Shown here: piece after piece, positions 4,364 to 30,667 of the stretch
Layout of the letters: each line of letters begins with the position of its first letter
Numbering within the stretch: the stretch's first letter is position 1
Origin: Massilicoli timonensis
GTDB lineage: Bacteria; Bacillota_I; Bacilli_A; Erysipelotrichales; Erysipelotrichaceae
Direction of reading: 5' to 3'
DNA length: 32,000 nucleotides
Assembly (NCBI RefSeq): GCF_900199515.1
Contig: NZ_LT963434.1
Location: 1,203,272-1,235,271 of the forward strand
Translations under genes and position numbers: made by a program
Notes under the pieces: generated by a model
Seen by the model: only the letters and a program-made list of their open reading frames with translations
Told to the model about the DNA's origin: nothing
The model's database searches: none

Positions 4364-4755
4364 AAAATCACTTCCTTTCTTCTTTTACAGTATAAAAGAA
4401 AAAAGTAAAGATTCCCTCTTAAAAAATATTAAGAATTTCAAAAGAATTAAAAAAGAAATAATCATAGACATTGATTTCCAAGCAAAAAAAGACCAATACG
4501 GCATAGGCAAAGACGAACCGCCATTGTATCACTTTTTCTCCTAATCATATATCTATGATCGTGAGCCTGCAATGCGTTCTATCTTTACAGATAACGCAAT
4601 CGTATTTTTTATAAATTTTATTTCTTATGATCGATCGCATACATATCGTCCTTCTCACAACATATTTTTACATTTGTTTTTACCTGTTGTTTCTTTCTTT
4701 TAGAAGCCAGTTACGCTATACTATAAAGTAGAAGCAAACGACAGGAGGCGGCCGT

Positions 4756-7413
4756 ATGAACCTTTATGAGATCCCTGAAAATGCCACGATTCTTGCACCG
4801 AGTTACCTGCATCCTTTTTTACAATACCGCTTGTTGAAACAGCACAAAAATCTGTTTGACCTGCACATGAAAACCCCGCAGGCCTTTTTAACAGAAACGA
4901 TCGGCAAAGAAGTCAATGAAACCGCAGTCTTATGGCAGTATTATCACAAGATCAAAGAAATACTGCCTGCTTTGCATATCTTAAAACGAATTGCGCCTAC
5001 CTATGCGTTTCTAAGTGAAGTGCACCGATTTTTAGTAAAACGGGAGCAATTCGCATTTGACCTTTCCACCTTGCCTAACCAAAGTGAAGTACAGCGCGAG
5101 CTCGCTTTGATCCTGCATGCACTGGCAGATCTCGCTATCATGCTCGACCCCGCAAGCACCTCATGCAGCGTGCTGCTATCAACAAAGCGCGATCTCAGCA
5201 ATGTCTATATTTTAGATTGCGGCTATTCCTTCACGCAGCAACAACAGATAGAAGCATTGTATGCATTAGGTGCAAAGCGCATCGACTGGTATGCGTACAA
5301 ACCGAAGCTCCATTTTTATCACAGCATCAATAAACGGCAGGAAATAGAAAGTGTCGCCGACCTTATCTTAACGAAACAATATCGGGCAGAAGACGTACAG
5401 ATCACCGTTTGTGATGATTCCTATAAGCCTTTTATCAAACAGATCTTTTCCCGACATCAGATCCCCCATACCATCTTATTTGAACAGCGTGCCTCTTTAG
5501 GCATGAAGGCGTTTGTGCTGTTATTGACGTATGCCATGACGCCAGATCGCGCACACTTGCTCGCTTTGTTGGATGCTTCCTTGTTTCCGATCAAGCATCT
5601 GCATGCGCTCAGCACCTATCTGCTCATCTTTGAAAAAGAACTGCATGATTCTTTTACCCATATGGAACAAGCTGTGATCAGCGATGATATTCTCTCCGCT
5701 TATGAAGTGGAAGAATTAAAGCAGATCGAACAAAAAGCACGCATTGCCAAGGAAGAATTGTTACTGCAACTGGTTCCGCTGCAACAAGACGATCTGCCTG
5801 CTTTGTTTCACCACTGCTATGATCTGCTTGCCCAAAACCGCGCCTATCAAAGCGCTTTGCCACAGATACAGACGATCTTGCAGGACAGTATGCCTTATTT
5901 GAATGAAAAAGAAGATCTTTCTTTTTTACTGGCAATATGTGATTCCTTTATGAAACAAGAACGCTGTGAGCACTATGAGGGGGTCATGATAACCGACCTC
6001 AATAAGCCGCTGCTGCATACGCCGATACATATCATCATGGGCTGCGATCAGAAACATTATCCTGCATTCAGCGGAGAAAAAGGCTTTTTTGATGAAAGCT
6101 ACATGGAACAGGTTGCTTATCCCGCTTTAGAGAAGCGCTATGCGCATGCACTGAAACGATTAGAAAAGCACCATCATAATGCACAGGAACTGTATCTGTT
6201 CTATGCACAGGGCGATTTTAAGGGAAAAAGTCAAGAGGCGGCGCCGGAAATCGAACTGCTTGCCGATAGGACATCTGTCCTTTATCCTTTATCCCAGCAT
6301 GATCATGAACGGCAAGAAGAAATTTGTTTGCGGGAAACAACGGCACGGCAGTTATTTACCCCCGACCAGATATTAAAGGGAAGTATCTCAGCATTTGAAC
6401 GCTATGTGAACTGTCCGTTTTCCTATTTTGTGCGCTATGGACTGGGGATCAAAGAACCGTTGGATGTGAGCTTCAATGTCGCCAAGATCGGTACCTTATC
6501 CCATTATGCCATGGAACAGATGACACGTCATTACCAAAAATCCTATACCAAGCATGAAGAGGCGCTGCTTCCTTATCTGGAAAGCAAAATACAGGAAATC
6601 ATGCAGGTTTATCCAAACAAAGAAGTGCTTTTATCCAATATCTTGCAGCGTTTGCATCAAAACTTACAGGTACTGCTGGGATTGTTAGACGATATGGAAG
6701 AACAGACTTCCTATGCGCCCGCTGCCTTTGAACACCGCTTTGAGGAAGAAATCCCGACCAATCAAGGCATTTTGATCCGTATTAGCGGTGTGATCGACCG
6801 TATTGACTTTTATGAACATTTTTTACGCATCATCGACTATAAGAGCAGTGCCAAAGTGCTCTCTTTACAAAATGTCTTATCAGGGAAACAATTACAGCTG
6901 CTCACCTATGCCTATGTTGCACAAAAGCAGTTTCACAAAGATGTCGCAGGCGCTTATTATCAGTCTTTGAAGAATGAAAGCATCCCTTTTCCTTATGGCA
7001 AGATCAAACGCAGACCGGTGGCTTTCCACGTTTACGAAGAGGCTGATGCACTGCGAGACAAATTAAAGAAAAGTGGCTTAAAGGGCTGGACGACATGTGA
7101 ATTTTTAGAGGCGCTTGATCATGACGGTACGCACATCAACGGTTTTTCCCAAAATAAAGACGGTGCGATACAGGCACGTACGATCTATTCTATGGAAGGG
7201 ATCAGCGAAGTGCTGTTGCAGCTCTATGATGCGATCGTAAAACAGATGATGAGCGGTGTGATCGCGCCCGCACCGATCAAAGATGCCTGCCTGTTCTGTC
7301 ATTATCATGACATCTGCCGCTATCAGGGCAATAATCGAGAACTAAAAGCATTGATCGAAGAACTGCCGGAGCATTTTTACATCAAAGGAGGAAAGCAGCA
7401 TGAAATGGAATGA
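4756..7413 (+). CDS. addB: helicase-nuclease AddAB subunit B (short form, no N-terminal Walker A)
   Basis: C-terminal PD-(D/E)XK nuclease motif (GVIDRIDF...RIIDYKSS) flanked by the Fe-S cysteines (YVNCPF ... CLFCHYHDIC). SD AGGAGG. The 3' end overlaps addA by 14 nt. No GxxGxGKT at the N-terminus. Confidence 0.9.
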   Translation: MNLYEIPENATILAPSYLHPFLQYRLLKQHKNLFDLHMKTPQAFLTETIGKEVNETAVLWQYYHKIKEILPALHILKRIAPTYAFLSEVHRFLVKREQFAFDLSTLPNQSEVQRELALILHALADLAIMLDPASTSCSVLLSTKRDLSNVYILDCGYSFTQQQQIEALYALGAKRIDWYAYKPKLHFYHSINKRQEIESVADLILTKQYRAEDVQITVCDDSYKPFIKQIFSRHQIPHTILFEQRASLGMKAFVLLLTYAMTPDRAHLLALLDASLFPIKHLHALSTYLLIFEKELHDSFTHMEQAVISDDILSAYEVEELKQIEQKARIAKEELLLQLVPLQQDDLPALFHHCYDLLAQNRAYQSALPQIQTILQDSMPYLNEKEDLSFLLAICDSFMKQERCEHYEGVMITDLNKPLLHTPIHIIMGCDQKHYPAFSGEKGFFDESYMEQVAYPALEKRYAHALKRLEKHHHNAQELYLFYAQGDFKGKSQEAAPEIELLADRTSVLYPLSQHDHERQEEICLRETTARQLFTPDQILKGSISAFERYVNCPFSYFVRYGLGIKEPLDVSFNVAKIGTLSHYAMEQMTRHYQKSYTKHEEALLPYLESKIQEIMQVYPNKEVLLSNILQRLHQNLQVLLGLLDDMEEQTSYAPAAFEHRFEEEIPTNQGILIRISGVIDRIDFYEHFLRIIDYKSSAKVLSLQNVLSGKQLQLLTYAYVAQKQFHKDVAGAYYQSLKNESIPFPYGKIKRRPVAFHVYEEADALRDKLKKSGLKGWTTCEFLEALDHDGTHINGFSQNKDGAIQARTIYSMEGISEVLLQLYDAIVKQMMSGVIAPAPIKDACLFCHYHDICRYQGNNRELKALIEELPEHFYIKGGKQHEME

Positions 7414-21009: not shown

Positions 21010-21714
21010 TTAAAGCGGCTTCTTCTTTATCATTGCATAATTGCGAGGATATTGTTTCGGCGTCGGCTTTTCCTTGCGATAGATCAAATTACAGCGCAGA
21101 GAATCTGTTCCCAGCCGCCGCACATCCTGTGCTTCCGCTGCACAGCCAAGCAAAGCAATCGCTCTCTGCGCTTCTTTCGCTTCTTCTATTCCGGCAGATC
21201 CTTTCATCGCCAGAAAAACACCGCCTATTTTGACAAGCGGAATGCAAAGTTCGCTCAGCACCCGCAGATTTGCGACTGCACGCGCTGTTACGAAATCAAA
21301 TGTTTCTCGATGTTCTTTCGCATAATCCTCCGCTCTTGCATTTACGATCACAACATCGCTTAATCCCAGTGCTTCTGTTAATGCCCGCAAAAATTGACAG
21401 CGTTTGCCGATCGGTTCAATGATCGTTACCCGTAGATCCGGCAAAAGGATCTTTAACGGCAAGGAAGGAAAACCCGCGCCTGCTCCTACATCGCAAAGTG
21501 ATCCGCTGATCTTTCTCTCAAAGGCAGGCAGCGCACAATCTAAAAAATGCTTCTCATAAATTTCCGCTGTTTCACGAATTGCCGTCAGGTTCATACGCTG
21601 GTTCCATTCCTGCAGCATGGACGCATACAAAGCAAACTGAGACATTTGTTCTTTTGTTACGGCGATGCCGTTTTGTTGCAGTATTTCTTGCAGTTCTTCC
21701 GGTGTCACAAGCAT
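21010..21714 (-). CDS. rsmG: 16S rRNA (guanine527-N7)-methyltransferase RsmG (GidB)
   Basis: WNQRMNLTAI, SLCDVGAGAGFPSLPLKI (SAM motif) and VTARAVA. The true start may be GTG 21708, which has better SD spacing from GGAGGG. Confidence 0.92.
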   Translation of the reverse strand: MLVTPEELQEILQQNGIAVTKEQMSQFALYASMLQEWNQRMNLTAIRETAEIYEKHFLDCALPAFERKISGSLCDVGAGAGFPSLPLKILLPDLRVTIIEPIGKRCQFLRALTEALGLSDVVIVNARAEDYAKEHRETFDFVTARAVANLRVLSELCIPLVKIGGVFLAMKGSAGIEEAKEAQRAIALLGCAAEAQDVRRLGTDSLRCNLIYRKEKPTPKQYPRNYAMIKKKPL

Positions 21715-21728
21715 CCCTCCGTTTCTTT

Positions 21729-21737
21729 ATTATACCA
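21729..21737 (-). promoter_or_regulatory. extended -10 promoter (TGgTATAAT) for rsmG-noc-soj-parB
   Basis: The minus strand reads TTTGGTATAATAAAGAAACGGAGGG immediately upstream of rsmG. Confidence 0.5.
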
Positions 21738-21783
21738 AATTCGCCATGTAAACGAAACACAATATTCATGAAAGATCGTGCGA

Positions 21784-21820
21784 AAAGAAAGAAGCGCATG
21801 CTGGCGCTGCTTGTTTCTTC
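21784..21820 (-). terminator. probable terminator insulating rsmG from upstream transcription
   Basis: The minus strand reads AAGCAGCGC-CAGCAT-GCGCTTCTT, followed by TCTTTTCG. The stem has one mismatch. Confidence 0.45.
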
Positions 21821-22025
21821 ATCTCAGCCTTTACTTATCACCCGGGAAATAAATGCGATCGTCATAAGACCAAACAGATTGAAAAACAGGCTTTTCATAG
21901 AAAAACCTGCTATACAAAATAAGAGCATTCTCTTTCATTTTCGATGATGCACACACCCTGCTCTTCATCAAACACTGCGCTTCCCTCCTTTTGTTCATCA
22001 AACCATAAAGATAGACAAACTGCAC

Positions 22026-22056
22026 AAAGCGGCACGCCTTCTTCGGTGCCGCTTTT
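22026..22056. terminator. perfect 10-bp GC-rich hairpin flanked by A/T runs (orientation ambiguous)
   Basis: AAAGCGGCAC (22026-22035) pairs with GTGCCGCTTT (22046-22055). On the plus strand it is followed by TCCATTTATTTT; on the minus strand by GTGCAGTTTG. Confidence 0.55.
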
Positions 22057-22253
22057 CCATTTATTTTCCAACAGTAGTTGTATTCAGTTTTCTTTACTTA
22101 TGCGTCCTTTCATTTCAAATACTTTTTCCTTTCCGTATCTTACTATTACTTTACGCATAATCCATTCTCTAACGTTCCATCTATCTTTTACATACTCTGT
22201 CCTGCATCACTTTTTTCCAATTCTTTTAGGTTTCTTTCCTTTCCTCTTTTTCT

Positions 22254-22403
22254 TTATGCTTCAGACAGAATATGATTCTCGCTCATGCTTGTTCCCGTTC
22301 TATTCTCACTGATCGGGTCGTAGTCATATTGATTTCGCGTTAAACTTTCGGAAGATCTTTTTCTAAGACGGGTCCATCGCTGTTCCCTTTCCTGCTGCCT
22401 CAT
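22254..22403 (-). CDS. candidate small ORF (49 aa from ATG 22403; 61 aa if TTG 22439), highly charged
   Basis: SD-like TAGGTGA lies 7 nt before ATG 22403. The peptide is MRQQEREQRWTRLRKRSSESLTRNQYDYDPISENRTGTSMSENHILSEA. No family recognised, so it may be fortuitous. Confidence 0.2.
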   Translation of the reverse strand: MRQQEREQRWTRLRKRSSESLTRNQYDYDPISENRTGTSMSENHILSEA

Positions 22404-22619
22404 GCATCTTTCACCTACATTTCCGCAGGCATCTTTCAATTCCGGCCTTCCTGCCGTATTTTCCTATATTCGCAAAACACAATTATGATTGTTATTCTCT
22501 TTTCCCTGTATGCCCGTACATGCTCTACAAGTCATGTCTTTCTTACAGAATCATAATGGTTTTGCTAAAATCGATCACCCATGTTCTCACACCTTTCCGT
22601 GCTTTTTCTTTACACCTTT

Positions 22620-22647
22620 ATTATAGAAAATTTTGCTATTCTGTAAA
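22620..22647 (-). promoter_or_regulatory. near-consensus sigma-A promoter immediately downstream of the LytTR regulator gene
   Basis: The minus strand reads TTTACA (22647-22642) - 16 nt - TATAAT (22625-22620). Confidence 0.65.
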
Positions 22648-22656
22648 GTGCTTTGG

Positions 22657-22686
22657 CATAACTTGTTGTTTTATGTCCTTAACTTG
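22657..22686 (-). promoter_or_regulatory. LytTR-type operator: 9-bp direct repeats CAAGTTAAG / CAAGTTATG separated by 12 bp
   Basis: The minus strand reads CAAGTTAAG (22686-22678), GACATAAAACAA, then CAAGTTATG (22665-22657), ending 9 nt upstream of the -35. This matches the AgrA-type consensus [TA][AC][CA]GTTN[AG][TG] at 8/9 and 7/9 positions, with the canonical 12-bp spacer. Confidence 0.55.
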
Positions 22687-23353
22687 CATCATCGGGTTGA
22701 AATGTTTGCAATGTTTCATAAAAACGATGCTTTTTGCTGCGAGAAATCGGGATGCTTTCCTGATTGATCAGCTCCACCTCATCTCCACGCACCGCTTTCA
22801 CACTGCGCAAATTCAATAAAAACGCATGATGTACCCGCACAAAGCCATCTTCCTGCCACTTTGCTTCTTTTTCCTTCAAAGTGCCGCGCTCTTGAAAAAT
22901 CCCGTATTTCGTATGATAAAGCAAATATTTTTCCTGCTTTTCCACATAGTAAATATCCCGTAAACGGATCTGCATGCTCGCCCCTTGCGTATGGATCAGA
23001 TAATATTGCTTCCCTTTTGCACACTGTTTCAGCAAATGCAGACAAAAAGGCAATTCTTTTTGAAAATCATGCAGATAGAGAAAAGTTGTCTGATTATATT
23101 TTCGGCTTTGGTAAGACGCGCTGTCCACAAATAAAACAATCGATGCTTTTGTAAATAATGTATCCCGAAAACGCGGGAGATCCATTTTTTCCGATAAGAT
23201 CAGCACATCATAAGGCAAGGCCTGCGCCGCCTTGGCATACTGCGCCAATTTCGCAAACCAGCGAAAAGAAAATGCGGTATCCTCCAACTGTACTCCCAGT
23301 GTAAAAATCATGTCTTTTGCTTTTTCTGCTTCCGCAACGACCGCAATGCGCAT
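22679..23353 (-). CDS. orphan LytTR-family regulator with degenerate (pseudo-)receiver domain
   Basis: C-terminal LytTR domain (IRLRDIYYVEKQEKYLLYHTKYGIFQERGTLKEKE...GFVRVHHAFLLNLRSVKAV). The N-terminal REC-like fold has AEAE in place of the DD/DE acidic pocket (MRIAVVAEAE) and Ser at the phospho-acceptor position (DVLILSEKMDLP). I prefer start ATG 23353 (MRIAVV) over the tracked 23416. Confidence 0.8.
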   Translation of the reverse strand: MRIAVVAEAEKAKDMIFTLGVQLEDTAFSFRWFAKLAQYAKAAQALPYDVLILSEKMDLPRFRDTLFTKASIVLFVDSASYQSRKYNQTTFLYLHDFQKELPFCLHLLKQCAKGKQYYLIHTQGASMQIRLRDIYYVEKQEKYLLYHTKYGIFQERGTLKEKEAKWQEDGFVRVHHAFLLNLRSVKAVRGDEVELINQESIPISRSKKHRFYETLQTFQPDDAS

Positions 23354-23374
23354 ACCGATCACCGTCCTATCCAC

Positions 23375-23383
23375 ATTATAGCA
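23375..23383 (-). promoter_or_regulatory. extended -10 element (TGcTATAAT) for the LytTR regulator gene
   Basis: The minus strand reads GAATGCTATAATGTGG about 20 nt upstream of ATG 23353. This supports the shorter start. Confidence 0.4.
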
Positions 23384-23530
23384 TTCTTTCTCATAAAAGA
23401 AGCGTTTTCCTCCCATTTCTTCGGTTTTTGATTGTATATTCTCCGCATTTTCATGATTTTGTAAATTGTTATTGTTTTTTTCTCACATCTATCTAATAAT
23501 AGAATCAGAGATAACGAAGGAGGTGCTGCT

Positions 23531-29399: not shown

Positions 29400-30509
29400 T
29401 TAATATTTCAGATCAATGATCTTTTCCCATGTAAACTGTGGATCACCGAAATGTCCATAACAGCTCGTCTTTGCATAGATTGGTTTTCTTAGATCCAGTT
29501 CCTTCAAAATATTGCCTACTTCAAAGTTAAAATTCCGCTTGATGATCGCTAAGATCTCTTCATCGCTCTTCGTACCGGTGCCAAAGGTTTCTACCATCAA
29601 GGATACCGGTTTACTTTTTCCGATCGCATAGGCAACCTCGATCTCACATTTATGCGCCAAACCGTGCGCAACGATATTCTTCGCGACATAGCGGCAATAA
29701 TACGCAGCGCTTCTGTCTACTTTCGTCGGGTCCTTTGATGAGAAACATCCGCCGCCGATCCTGCCCATTCCGCCATAAGTATCACATACGATCTTTCTTC
29801 CCGTCGTACCGGAATCGCCGAAGCTGCCGCCTACGACAAAGCTGCCGCTTGGATTGATCAAAAACTTGGTAGAGGCATCGATCAGCTCCGGTTCAATACA
29901 TGGTGCAATGACTTCCTTCATGATCAGCTCTCTGATTTCTTCCTGCGTCGCTTCTTTTTTATGCTGGGTCGATACCACGATCGTATCAATGCGTTTGATG
30001 TGATCATCCTCATATTCCACCGAAACCTGTGTCTTGCCATCCGGTCCTAAAATAGAATGTGGATCGCTCTTTCGCACTTTTGCCAACTGGCGTGCCAATT
30101 TATGCGCGTAATAAATCGGCGCCGGCATGTATTCATCACTTTCTGCGCAGGCAAAGCCAAACATGATGCCCTGATCTCCCGCACCGATCTCTCCTTCGTT
30201 TTCCTGCGCCGTTACCGCGTGGTTGATCTCCGAAGACTGTTTGTTTACCTTTACCATCACTTCATATGTTTCTTCATACCCGATCTTCTTGATCGTATCT
30301 TTGGCGATCTGTTCATAGTCGATCTTCGCGCTTGTATTCGCTTCTCCGTAAATTAAGACAAAATCGTCTTTGATCGTCGCTTCGACCGCCATTTTGCTGT
30401 TAGGATCCTGCCGCAGCGCTTCATCTAAGATACTGTCCGCAATCTGATCACAGATCTTATCTGGATGTCCTTCCGTAATGCTTTCTGATGTAAATAAATA
30501 ATCTCTCAT
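29400..30509 (-). CDS. metK: S-adenosylmethionine synthase (methionine adenosyltransferase)
   Basis: FTSESITEGHPDKICDQIADSILD, GAGDQGIMFGFA and GGGCFSSKDPTKVDRSAAY. ATG 30509 (MRDYLFTSES) is preferred over the tracked TTG 30530. Confidence 0.95.
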   Translation of the reverse strand: MRDYLFTSESITEGHPDKICDQIADSILDEALRQDPNSKMAVEATIKDDFVLIYGEANTSAKIDYEQIAKDTIKKIGYEETYEVMVKVNKQSSEINHAVTAQENEGEIGAGDQGIMFGFACAESDEYMPAPIYYAHKLARQLAKVRKSDPHSILGPDGKTQVSVEYEDDHIKRIDTIVVSTQHKKEATQEEIRELIMKEVIAPCIEPELIDASTKFLINPSGSFVVGGSFGDSGTTGRKIVCDTYGGMGRIGGGCFSSKDPTKVDRSAAYYCRYVAKNIVAHGLAHKCEIEVAYAIGKSKPVSLMVETFGTGTKSDEEILAIIKRNFNFEVGNILKELDLRKPIYAKTSCYGHFGDPQFTWEKIIDLKY

Positions 30510-30530
30510 GCTCCTCGTCCTTTCTTTCAA

Positions 30531-30574: not shown

Positions 30575-30667
30575 GTTTCTCTTATCGCTGTCAGCTTTAC
30601 CACCTTGTAGATACAGGTTGGCGCGGGATCATCGAGCTGACTCTCTACTCCGACTCTTGATAATAGG
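30575..30667 (-). promoter_or_regulatory. SAM-I (S-box) riboswitch aptamer, atypical P2 apex/P4
   Basis: The minus strand reads UUAUCAAGAG...GGAG...GAUGAUCCCGCGCCAACC...AAGGUGGUAAAGC...GAUAAGAG. It matches the S-box core (P1 UUAUC/GAUAA, J1/2 AAGAG, GAUGA k-turn half, CAACC, AGGUG) and sits upstream of metK. Confidence 0.8.

Follow-up and report, generated by a model that had tools for sequence, protein, structure and literature searches.

A predicted 600-nucleotide structured RNA family coupled to an atypical LytTR regulator in some Erysipelotrichaceae

Results

A candidate RNA gene downstream of a LytTR regulator

The DNA analysed here is a stretch of 32,000 nt from Massilicoli timonensis (contig NZ_LT963434.1, positions 1,203,272–1,235,271; the whole stretch is referred to as the window), and the element under study lies in the gap between rsmG and the gene of a LytTR-domain regulator. 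Comparison of this gap with related loci led us to the view that positions 22018–22613 are likely the gene of an approximately 600-nt structured noncoding RNA, which would represent a new family and serve as a trans-acting effector of the adjacent, atypical LytTR regulator. The parts of this view differ in strength. That the region encodes an independently transcribed, functional structured noncoding RNA coupled to the regulator is highly probable from the sequences compared; that the RNA acts in trans as an effector is, by analogy with known systems, about an even bet. The comparison shows a conserved module of regulator and RNA genes, a predicted complete unit from promoter to terminator, a covarying structure and no coding frame. 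The family has so far been found only in some Erysipelotrichaceae, and it matches no Rfam family. By analogy with RNAIII and FasX in pathogens, the RNA is probably the RNA output of its neighbouring regulator.

Signals of a predicted transcription unit

The coordinates of all features are collected in Table 1. It had originally been predicted that a minus-strand transcript devoid of genes starts at a promoter with LytTR boxes, and the signals found in the window are those of such a unit. The promoter matches the sigma-A consensus at 11 of 12 positions and would place the start site near 22613. The pair of LytTR-type boxes ends 9 nt before the −35 element, and its upstream box overlaps the stop codon of the regulator gene (22679–22681). 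The pair is unique in the 32-kb window even when 3 mismatches are allowed, and besides those at the RNA promoters no further box pair was found in the window or in the homologue loci. The boxes resemble what we take to be the AgrA/ComE 9-mer with a 12-bp spacer, and they are a candidate binding site for the adjacent LytTR regulator. At the other end, the hairpin that had been proposed as terminator of an RNA of about 590 nt would give a length close to that, about 596 nt. The transcript most likely ends near 22018, leaving 21800–22017 outside the RNA. An upper length of 0.85 kb, also proposed, is not valid for the window copy.

In the window, there is no terminator between the regulator gene and the RNA promoter. 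Transcripts reading through from the regulator gene could therefore also contain the RNA, which would then extend the regulator mRNA far at its 3′ end. Two homologous loci (L028 and L068), unlike the window, have a terminator after the regulator gene.

The RNA and the regulator are conserved together

The organism is common in metagenome assemblies, its regulator sequence being present in 80 blocks of the searched collection. The gap also had no called gene on eight near-identical contigs from metagenomes (L001–L008); these are 99.5–100% identical to the window, a variation too small to be useful. When the window regulator alone was used for a protein search, the result was nearly empty. The rsmG-containing loci of related species led to a copy of the layout in Amedibacillus dolichus DSM 3991, with a LytTR open reading frame (ORF; 24% identical to that of the window), a stretch of about 1 kb without genes, and rsmG. 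The promoter and the first 22 nt (CTATAATAAAGGTGTAAAGAAA) of this copy are identical to those of the window. The family was retrieved only once the A. dolichus protein had been aligned with that of the window: a profile of the two regulators gave a family of 224–253 aa proteins (P0003–P0043), with hosts in Amedibacillus, Longicatena, [Eubacterium] hominis and gut bacteria.

All 12 loci fetched by way of the regulator homologues had a stretch of about 0.9–1.1 kb downstream of the LytTR gene that contained the RNA element, as verified by profile. This stretch held no called gene, or short unconserved ORF calls only. Beyond the RNA element the genes varied, and included rsmG, a second LytTR response regulator, MatE, an IS200 transposase and an alanine-racemase-like gene. 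A metagenome scan with a pattern of the RNA only, excluding the species of the window, gave 18 more true copies, and the regulator was just upstream in 10 of the 10 tested that had upstream sequence. The remaining 27 of the 45 pattern matches were chance matches from unrelated environments and were removed by nhmmer and a covariance model. After removal of copies more than 97% identical, 18 distinct elements were left, from Amedibacillus dolichus, Longicatena caecimuris and gut metagenomes. The nhmmer profile matched the window once, at 22655–22244 (E = 1.8e-57).

Conservation thus extends beyond the strain, to 18 non-redundant homologues that are linked to one LytTR family and in which promoter, boxes, leader and terminator recur. 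The −10 element TATAAT is invariant, the −35 element is TTTACA in 16 of 18, and the spacer is 16 nt. At the place matching the boxes of the window, the family members carry ACCRATTnTTCCA twice, 20 bp apart. A strong hairpin with a U-tract follows 500–950 nt past the −10 in every homologue; a strict scan missed most of these terminators, which were found by an energy-based scan. The regulators are 24–31% identical to the window protein. For the first 300 nt of the RNA, identity was 42–66% between the window and A. dolichus and 66–100% within subgroups; by these figures the RNA is more strongly conserved than the adjacent protein. The first ~300–330 nt and the last ~200 nt are kept, and the middle, A-rich and C-poor, is unalignable and variable in length, with the total RNA length ranging from 0.5 to 0.95 kb across the family.

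Several loci carry other genes around the module. In L068/L056 an opposite-strand gene, ankyrin-repeat-like by eye, lies between regulator and RNA (L068 8590–9606), and in L032 an IS200-type Y1 transposase follows right after the RNA (4594–5064). Despite these insertions, regulator and RNA stay within about 1 kb of each other.

A covarying structure

A first structural alignment, made by sequence-only MAFFT of the first 285 nt of 18 sequences, placed five helices (H1–H4 and H6). It was observed that 90.4% of the cells held standard pairs, compared with 30–45% when the partners were slid by 1–3 columns. Double changes occurred in 19 of 32 pairs, and none of 500 shuffles reached any of the observed measures. 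A second sequence-only MAFFT alignment, covering the H3–H7 segment, gave 84% paired cells against 30–49% after sliding. In an alignment by covariance model, which leans towards its model, 88% of the cells were paired and all seven H6 pairs had double changes. Over the three alignments, 84–90% of cells were paired against 29–49% slid, with 16–19 double-change pairs and at most 1 of 500 shuffles matching. RNAalifold on the raw MAFFT alignment found three helices only; the others were obtained by a column-pair scan and inspection.

The long-range helix H1 had double changes in 5 of its 7 pairs and 94% of cells paired, its arms elsewhere being GUUAGAU/AUCUAAC or GUUAAAU/AUUUAAC. The 9-bp inverted repeat that had been noted in this region exists and is part of the conserved H1, with one correction: the arm AATCATAAT is at 22549–22557 and not at 22550–22558. 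H3 was paired in 95% of cells, with a compensatory change from UA to CG in the window. For H4 the figure was 99%, and three covarying versions were seen (CCUGA/UCAGG, CCUAA/UUAGG and CCUGC/GCAGG); the small hairpin H5 inside it was recovered in per-sequence folds. The H6 loop is GUGA, GCGA or GUAA across the family, and H7 covaries as CUG/CAG, CUA/UAG, CUAG/CUAG and CUCAUA/UAUGAG. G-U pairs are frequent (in 14 and 16 of the 18 sequences at two positions, for example), and hence only the minus strand fits as the RNA.

A covariance model built from the H3–H7 segment (R1) gave one strong match per element, that of the window being at 22352–22461 with 70.5 bits, and none in unrelated loci. The window RNA taken singly folded with z = −5.0, and none of 100 shuffles folded as well. 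Single-sequence folds also recovered H4–H7 independently in most members, together with the long hairpin T3 of the 3′ domain. The MAFFT alignment of the 3′ domain was too gappy for column pair counts, and the evidence for T3 is a nested hairpin present in 15 of 17 members by per-sequence folds without shuffle controls (UUGUA/UACAA, UUGCA/UGCAA). Its loop is (A)GGAAGGAAAAA or a close variant in nine members, and the conserved blocks ACAUACAAAUGU and GUUGGUAAAAUUGAAUAG precede the terminator. Conserved and covarying as they are, the 5′ core H1–H7 and the 3′ domain would be the functional parts of the RNA.

A mini-ORF built into the leader

The predicted transcript starts with AAAGGUGUAAAGAAA and a purine run, followed by the invariant GAGAGCGGUGAGAAnAUGGGAA (GGAAAGGUGUGAGAACAUGGGUG in the window), which is a Shine–Dalgarno (SD) sequence at proper spacing together with an AUG. 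An SD 7 nt before a five-codon ORF (MGDRF*) had been described for the window. We found this arrangement intact in 18 of 18 elements, as the SD (GGUGAG), AUGGG and a mini-ORF of 5 codons in the window and 6 elsewhere. The stop codon is TAA, TAG or TGA, always at one position. The peptides vary (MGTLAS, MGKFES, MGSFRG and others), and only Met-Gly is conserved. In 17 of 18 elements the Gly codon has A as its third base, and the flanks do not vary, indicating a constraint at the nucleotide level. The stop codon is at the base of H1, its G being the first H1 base, and its third base covaries with the H1 partner (AU in 8 elements, GC in 6).

Sequestration of the SD (CGGUG) by the 3′ strand of H3 (CAUCG) was considered and rejected: the pairing is lost in the window, and H3 covaries internally.

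Coding potential and known families

Consistent with the original claim that the gap holds no credible protein gene, gene callers, Pfam and ORF comparison were all negative. ORF clustering over 15 members gave no shared ORF of at least 15 aa beyond what nucleotide identity explains, the longest sense ORFs being 24–61 aa, and Pfam gave no match over the cut-off for eight local ORF peptides. A 49-aa ORF singled out earlier does exist (22403–22254, with its ATG at 22403), inside a 61-aa ORF at 22254–22439; it is specific to the window and has no counterpart in the homologues. An apparent ORF (MRE...) over H2 in some members was discarded: no SD precedes it, neither A. dolichus nor the window has a start codon for it, and its variation consists of compensatory base changes.

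That no RNA family could be assigned agrees with the searches carried out here. Rfam 15 at gathering thresholds gave no match in the window besides an S-adenosylmethionine (SAM) riboswitch at 30579–30666. At E ≤ 10, the RNA region gave chance eukaryotic matches only, and 13 homologue loci yielded one tRNA only. ARAGORN found no tRNA or tmRNA in the region, and no description of the RNA was found in the literature searched. A phage association was dropped, the viral scan having given one chance match without profile similarity.

Composition of the RNA

The plus strand at 22081–22260 had been credited with only 11 G in 180 nt; a recount gave the same number, which is the minimum over all 180-nt segments of the 32 kb. 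Purines make up 68% of the predicted RNA and C makes up 13%, compared with 51–61% purine and 17–23% C for the sense strands of 10 neighbouring genes. The GC and AT skews of the region have the same sign as those of the neighbouring minus-strand genes. Another part of the original prediction, that the RNA is full of SD-like motifs, was not borne out. Across the family RNAs, GGA (7–21 per RNA) is mildly above the dinucleotide-shuffle expectation (z = 2.9), and GGAG is depleted about twofold (20 observed vs 43 expected, z = −3.8), with none in the window RNA. Such a body, poor in C, rich in A and depleted of GGAG, is what one would expect if selection keeps a long RNA untranslated, and it would offer no C-rich loading sites to Rho.

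Two motif-based candidates were considered. For a CsrB-like GGA sponge, the GGA enrichment is weak, and one conserved 12-nt loop has two GGA. The anti-SD-like AACUCCA was rejected as a universal seed, as it occurred in 9 of 17 members only and is absent from the window.

The adjacent regulator

The only Pfam domain of the regulator is LytTR (PF04397, E = 3.7e-18); no match to Response_reg was obtained even at E ≤ 10. An AlphaFold2 model from 16 family members has an N-terminal (beta-alpha)5 domain followed by LytTR, with a predicted local distance difference test score (pLDDT) of 72.5, the confidence for the N-terminal part being moderate (pLDDT 53–81). The best Foldseek match of the model was full-length ComE (4cbv, E = 3.7e-10), over the whole chain, and the AgrA and B. 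cereus LytTR domains were matched with target-normalised TM-scores of 0.78–0.85. Just after beta3, at the site of the acceptor Asp in ComE-type receivers, the window protein has S75-E76 and the other family members have H-E or N-E, and never Asp. No kinase gene was seen among the window neighbours of the regulator, which are the PNPOx-like, pseudouridine synthase and rsmG genes. As it has no acceptor residue after beta3 and no kinase gene beside it, the modelled protein is best regarded as an Asp-less and probably phosphorylation-independent ComE-like regulator.

The gene before the regulator in the window is the divergent PNPOx-like gene. In six other loci (L024, L026, L028, L031, L033 and L082) a YdjC-family gene (PF04794) immediately precedes the regulator, and there the two genes probably form an operon.

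Table 1. Positions in the 32-kb window of the predicted RNA gene, its parts and its surroundings.
Feature	Position	Strand	Description
rsmG	21010–21714	minus	followed by noc, parA, parB
Gap	21715–22678		964 nt, between rsmG and the LytTR regulator ORF
LytTR regulator gene	22679–23416	minus	245 aa; receiver-like N-terminal domain and LytTR DNA-binding domain
Noncoding RNA gene	22018–22613	minus	~596 nt; predicted transcript
LytTR-type boxes	22657–22686	minus	two direct 9-mers, CAAGTTAAG-N12-CAAGTTATG; 21 bp start to start
Sigma-A-type promoter	22620–22647	minus	−35 TTTACA 22647–22642; 16-nt spacer; −10 TATAAT 22625–22620
RNA 5′ domain	~22613–22290	minus	followed by a short variable body
RNA 3′ domain	~22270–22060	minus	followed by the terminator, last
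Leader	22565–22598	minus	SD-like GGAAAGGUGUGAG and mini-ORF AUG GGU GAU CGA UUU UAG
SD	22598–22590	minus	GGAAAGGTG
Mini-ORF	22582–22565	minus	MGDRF*
H1	22472–22565	minus	long-range helix; GCAAAAC 22565–22559 pairs with GUUUUGC 22478–22472; encloses H2
H1 extension	22557–22549 / 22490–22482	minus	AUUAUGAUU pairs with AAUCAUAAU
H2	22517–22537	minus	hairpin, 8 pairs, 3 with double changes (UUUC/GGAA, UCUC/GGGA, UGCC/GGUA, UAUC/GGUA)
H3	22443–22456	minus	hairpin; CGGC...GCCG in window, CGGUG...CAUCG in family
H4, H5	22391–22429	minus	H4 CCUGC...GCAGG, enclosing small hairpin H5
H6, H7	22356–22387	minus	H6 hairpin with GNRA tetraloop (GCGA), then small hairpin H7 (UCUU...AAGA)
T3	22098–22160	minus	long hairpin of the 3′ domain; UUAUGCGU 22160–22153 pairs with ACGCAUAA 22105–22098
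T3 inner hairpin	22134–22123 (loop)	minus	GAUAC/GUAUU with 12-nt purine loop GGAAAGGAAAAA
Intrinsic terminator	22026–22056	minus	predicted hairpin and weak U-tract (UUUGUGCAGUUUG); −17.5 kcal/mol with flanks
21-codon ORF	21910–21975	minus	GTG start, MFDEEQGVCIIENERECSYFV; strong SD AAAGGAGGG, 8-nt spacing
DnaA-box-like 9-mer	23367–23375		CTATCCACA, 1 mismatch to TTATCCACA; inside the 5′ end of the regulator gene
SAM riboswitch RF00162	30579–30666	minus	46.4 bits, barely over the gathering score; upstream of 376-aa ORF 29400–30530

Other features of the locus

RsmG of the window is at most 58–60% identical to RsmG of Longicatena caecimuris and Amedibacillus dolichus. The 21-codon ORF is flanked by the RNA terminator on one side and by a second terminator-like hairpin (21886–21910) on the other, and it was not seen in the homologues; it would be co-transcribed with the RNA if the RNA terminator leaks. 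Small ORFs also occur after the RNA elsewhere. In A. dolichus (L016 5755–5853) a 32-aa hydrophobic ORF, MFFFLFALIIAYLVYVLLIYPSRCCQKCKRRR, with a strong SD lies on the strand opposite to the RNA, between the RNA terminator and rsmG and convergent, and in L030 and L032 an unrelated 54-aa membrane ORF follows the RNA. The isolated DnaA-box-like 9-mer could easily be due to chance.

Discussion

A proposed mechanism

On the basis of these signals, the following course of events may be proposed. The regulator encoded upstream would bind the two direct repeats abutting the −35 element and thereby set the transcription of the RNA, which would start near 22613 and stop at the terminator at 22026–22056. 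The purine-rich leader would load a ribosome on the SD and mini-ORF, and the loaded ribosome would most likely shield the long untranslated RNA from decay that depends on the 5′ end, as the STAB-SD and polypurine stabilisers of Firmicutes do. Since the stop codon sits at the base of H1, translation would open the domain that H1 encloses; the terminating ribosome would hold H1 open and so couple the fold of the 5′ core to translation. The RNA would then act in trans as the effector of the regulator, with mRNAs as pairing targets or with a protein or the ribosome as binding partner; this is the weakest step of the proposal. The earlier RNAIII- or VR-RNA-like reading of the region is supported in its structural elements; on that reading, the RNA would be transcribed in dependence on the regulator and would have a regulatory role.

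Several observations weigh against this proposal. The boxes of the window (CAAGTTAWG) are unlike those of the family (ACCRATTnTTCCA). The dependence of the RNA on the regulator is uncertain because the promoter, at 11 of 12 positions, is near consensus: an activator may be unneeded, and the regulator could repress or be irrelevant. The U-tract of the window terminator is poor, and the second hairpin (21886–21910) follows 150 nt further on. The alignments consist of 18 sequences of a narrow clade, and the shuffle controls ignore phylogeny. No target, partner or unpaired conserved seed common to all members was found, and the enrichment of GGA is weak. Finally, two loci (L034 3676–4790 and L070 7814–8900) have a partial second cassette of boxes, promoter and leader directly after the LytTR gene, with the full RNA copy following. 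The partial cassette of L034 precedes a 105-aa membrane-protein ORF, and that of L070, with leader, mini-ORF and H1/H2 up to H3, runs into a gene for a lipoprotein of about 200 aa with an LFLC lipobox. The 5′ part of the RNA can therefore serve as an mRNA leader, fitting a role in cis at least in these two loci. They also suggest that duplication of the RNA's 5′ end is a way for the regulon to take in protein genes.

Other explanations

A variant of the proposal, which we regard as possible though rather doubtful, is that the RNA is no base-pairing small RNA and instead belongs to a new class of large RNA, one that interacts with the translation machinery or with a protein. The ribosome coming from the SD and mini-ORF, terminating at the foot of H1, could toggle the fold of the 5′ core, and the RNA could report translational status or scaffold a ribonucleoprotein by way of the GNRA loop and the purine-loop hairpin. 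The Asp-less LytTR protein would then be the transcription factor of the RNA and, possibly, its ligand-sensing partner.

The two partial cassettes, which precede protein genes, also bear on the foremost competing explanation, that the whole element is a cis-regulatory leader. The 5′ domain would then be a riboswitch-like or translation-coupled attenuator of the downstream gene, with the hairpin at 22026–22056 as expression platform and the rest as spacer. The stop codon of the mini-ORF inside H1, as in leader-peptide attenuators, and the lack of a terminator between regulator gene and RNA in the window would agree with this. Such a leader is nevertheless unlikely, because the genes downstream of the 18 full copies vary, the next called gene being on the opposite strand in L028 and L029, and no ORF was found behind the full copies. 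Moreover, the terminator comes 500–950 nt from the start, after an adjacent second conserved domain, and in the rsmG-adjacent loci it is followed by a separate extended −10 that is conserved among them.

It may also be asked whether the product is the 5–6-residue peptide, serving for instance as a signal to the Asp-less receiver-like domain, with the RNA as a mere carrier. LytTR systems often control small signalling peptide genes, and the mini-ORF would suit one: its SD, AUG and stop are kept in 18 of 18 elements, with three different stop codons at one position, and the peptide differs between lineages in a pherotype-like manner. We consider this quite improbable, given that Met-Gly is all that is conserved of the peptide, that the Gly third base and the invariant flanks point to constraint on nucleotides, and that the third base of the stop covaries with its partner in H1. 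More than 95% of the conserved covarying sequence is outside the mini-ORF, and no linked export or processing gene was present in the loci examined.

A decayed protein gene, or a neutral spacer with composition skewed by strand-biased mutation, would share the skew sign of the neighbouring minus-strand genes and could leave a middle that is unalignable between genera, as observed, but this explanation is very improbable and already contradicted: 19 of 32 pairs have compensatory double changes matched by 0 of 500 shuffles, the RNA is better conserved than the adjacent protein, no ORF is common to the members and no Pfam similarity was found, and promoter and terminator are kept in 18 lineages. 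Least probable of all is a DNA-level element of the origin-proximal rsmG-noc-parA-parB cluster, such as a region for partition, unwinding or protein binding: the tract has a high A+T content and an asymmetry between its strands, and rsmG-noc-parAB directly follows it in 8 of the 18 non-redundant loci, but it travels with the LytTR gene and not with rsmG (its neighbours are other than rsmG in L024, L028, L081 and L082, and in Longicatena caecimuris about 6 kb and three ORFs separate it from rsmG), Holdemania and other sampled Erysipelotrichaceae (metagenome-assembled genomes) have rsmG with no element found, and the many G-U pairs equal A-C mismatches on the other strand.

Implications

The AgrA-RNAIII, FasA-FasX and VirR-VR-RNA pairs are central to virulence control, and almost all known LytTR regulators with RNA effectors are, to our knowledge, those of pathogens whose systems are classical and kinase-driven. 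If the proposed role of the RNA as effector of its LytTR regulator is right, this logic extends to commensal gut Erysipelotrichaceae. Here a regulator that is probably independent of phosphorylation would be paired with an RNA 3–4 times the size of FasX, which is about 200 nt. The RNA is large for a bacterial noncoding RNA, and it has a conserved mini-ORF, predicted to be translated, whose stop codon is part of a structural helix. The RNA is present in two type strains that can be cultivated, Amedibacillus dolichus DSM 3991 and Longicatena caecimuris DSM 29481.

Comparison with known systems

The RNA resembles OLE, ROOL, GOLLD, HEARO and raiA in its size of 0.5–1 kb, its multiple covarying helices, its GNRA tetraloop, its narrow distribution and its unassigned biochemical role. 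Unlike these, it has no Rfam match, and with its long purine-rich stretches left unpaired and its middle evolving fast it is less densely structured. We know of no tie between those RNAs and a transcription factor gene, unlike the RNA described here.

With AgrA-RNAIII of Staphylococcus aureus and VirR-VR-RNA of Clostridium perfringens, the present system would share the driving of a regulatory RNA by a LytTR regulator from direct repeats about two helical turns apart. RNAIII is 514 nt long and likewise contains a small ORF, in its case for a 26-aa toxin, and its C-rich loops pair with SD sequences. The RNA described here, in contrast, has no homology to RNAIII or VR-RNA by Rfam and is C-depleted, and its mini-ORF has 5–6 codons and an unconserved peptide, unlike the 26-aa toxin of RNAIII.

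The leader may be compared with the 5′ stabilisers of Firmicute RNAs, namely the STAB-SD of cryIIIA, the polypurine stabiliser, ribosome-protected hbs and the ermC stall. As in the cases listed in the review PMC3997798 (its references 106, 179 and 180), a long RNA carries an SD-like polypurine sequence or a short translated ORF at 30–45 nt from its 5′ end. Here, by contrast, this element heads a noncoding RNA and has a stop codon built into a conserved helix, and its stabilising effect is a predicted one.

The closest parallel is FasBCA-FasX of Streptococcus pyogenes, in which the ComE-like regulator FasA has a site upstream of the fasX −35 and FasX as its main effector (PMC12675982). FasA needs phosphorylation of Asp60 by the FasB/C kinases, unlike the regulator of the window, which has neither the acceptor Asp nor an adjacent kinase gene. 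The RNA of 500–950 nt, with its two conserved structured domains, also differs from FasX and has no sequence or Rfam relationship to it. What the two systems have in common is the order of regulator and then RNA gene, a regulator-type site just upstream of the −35, and an RNA that, here as well, would be the main or only output of its regulator.

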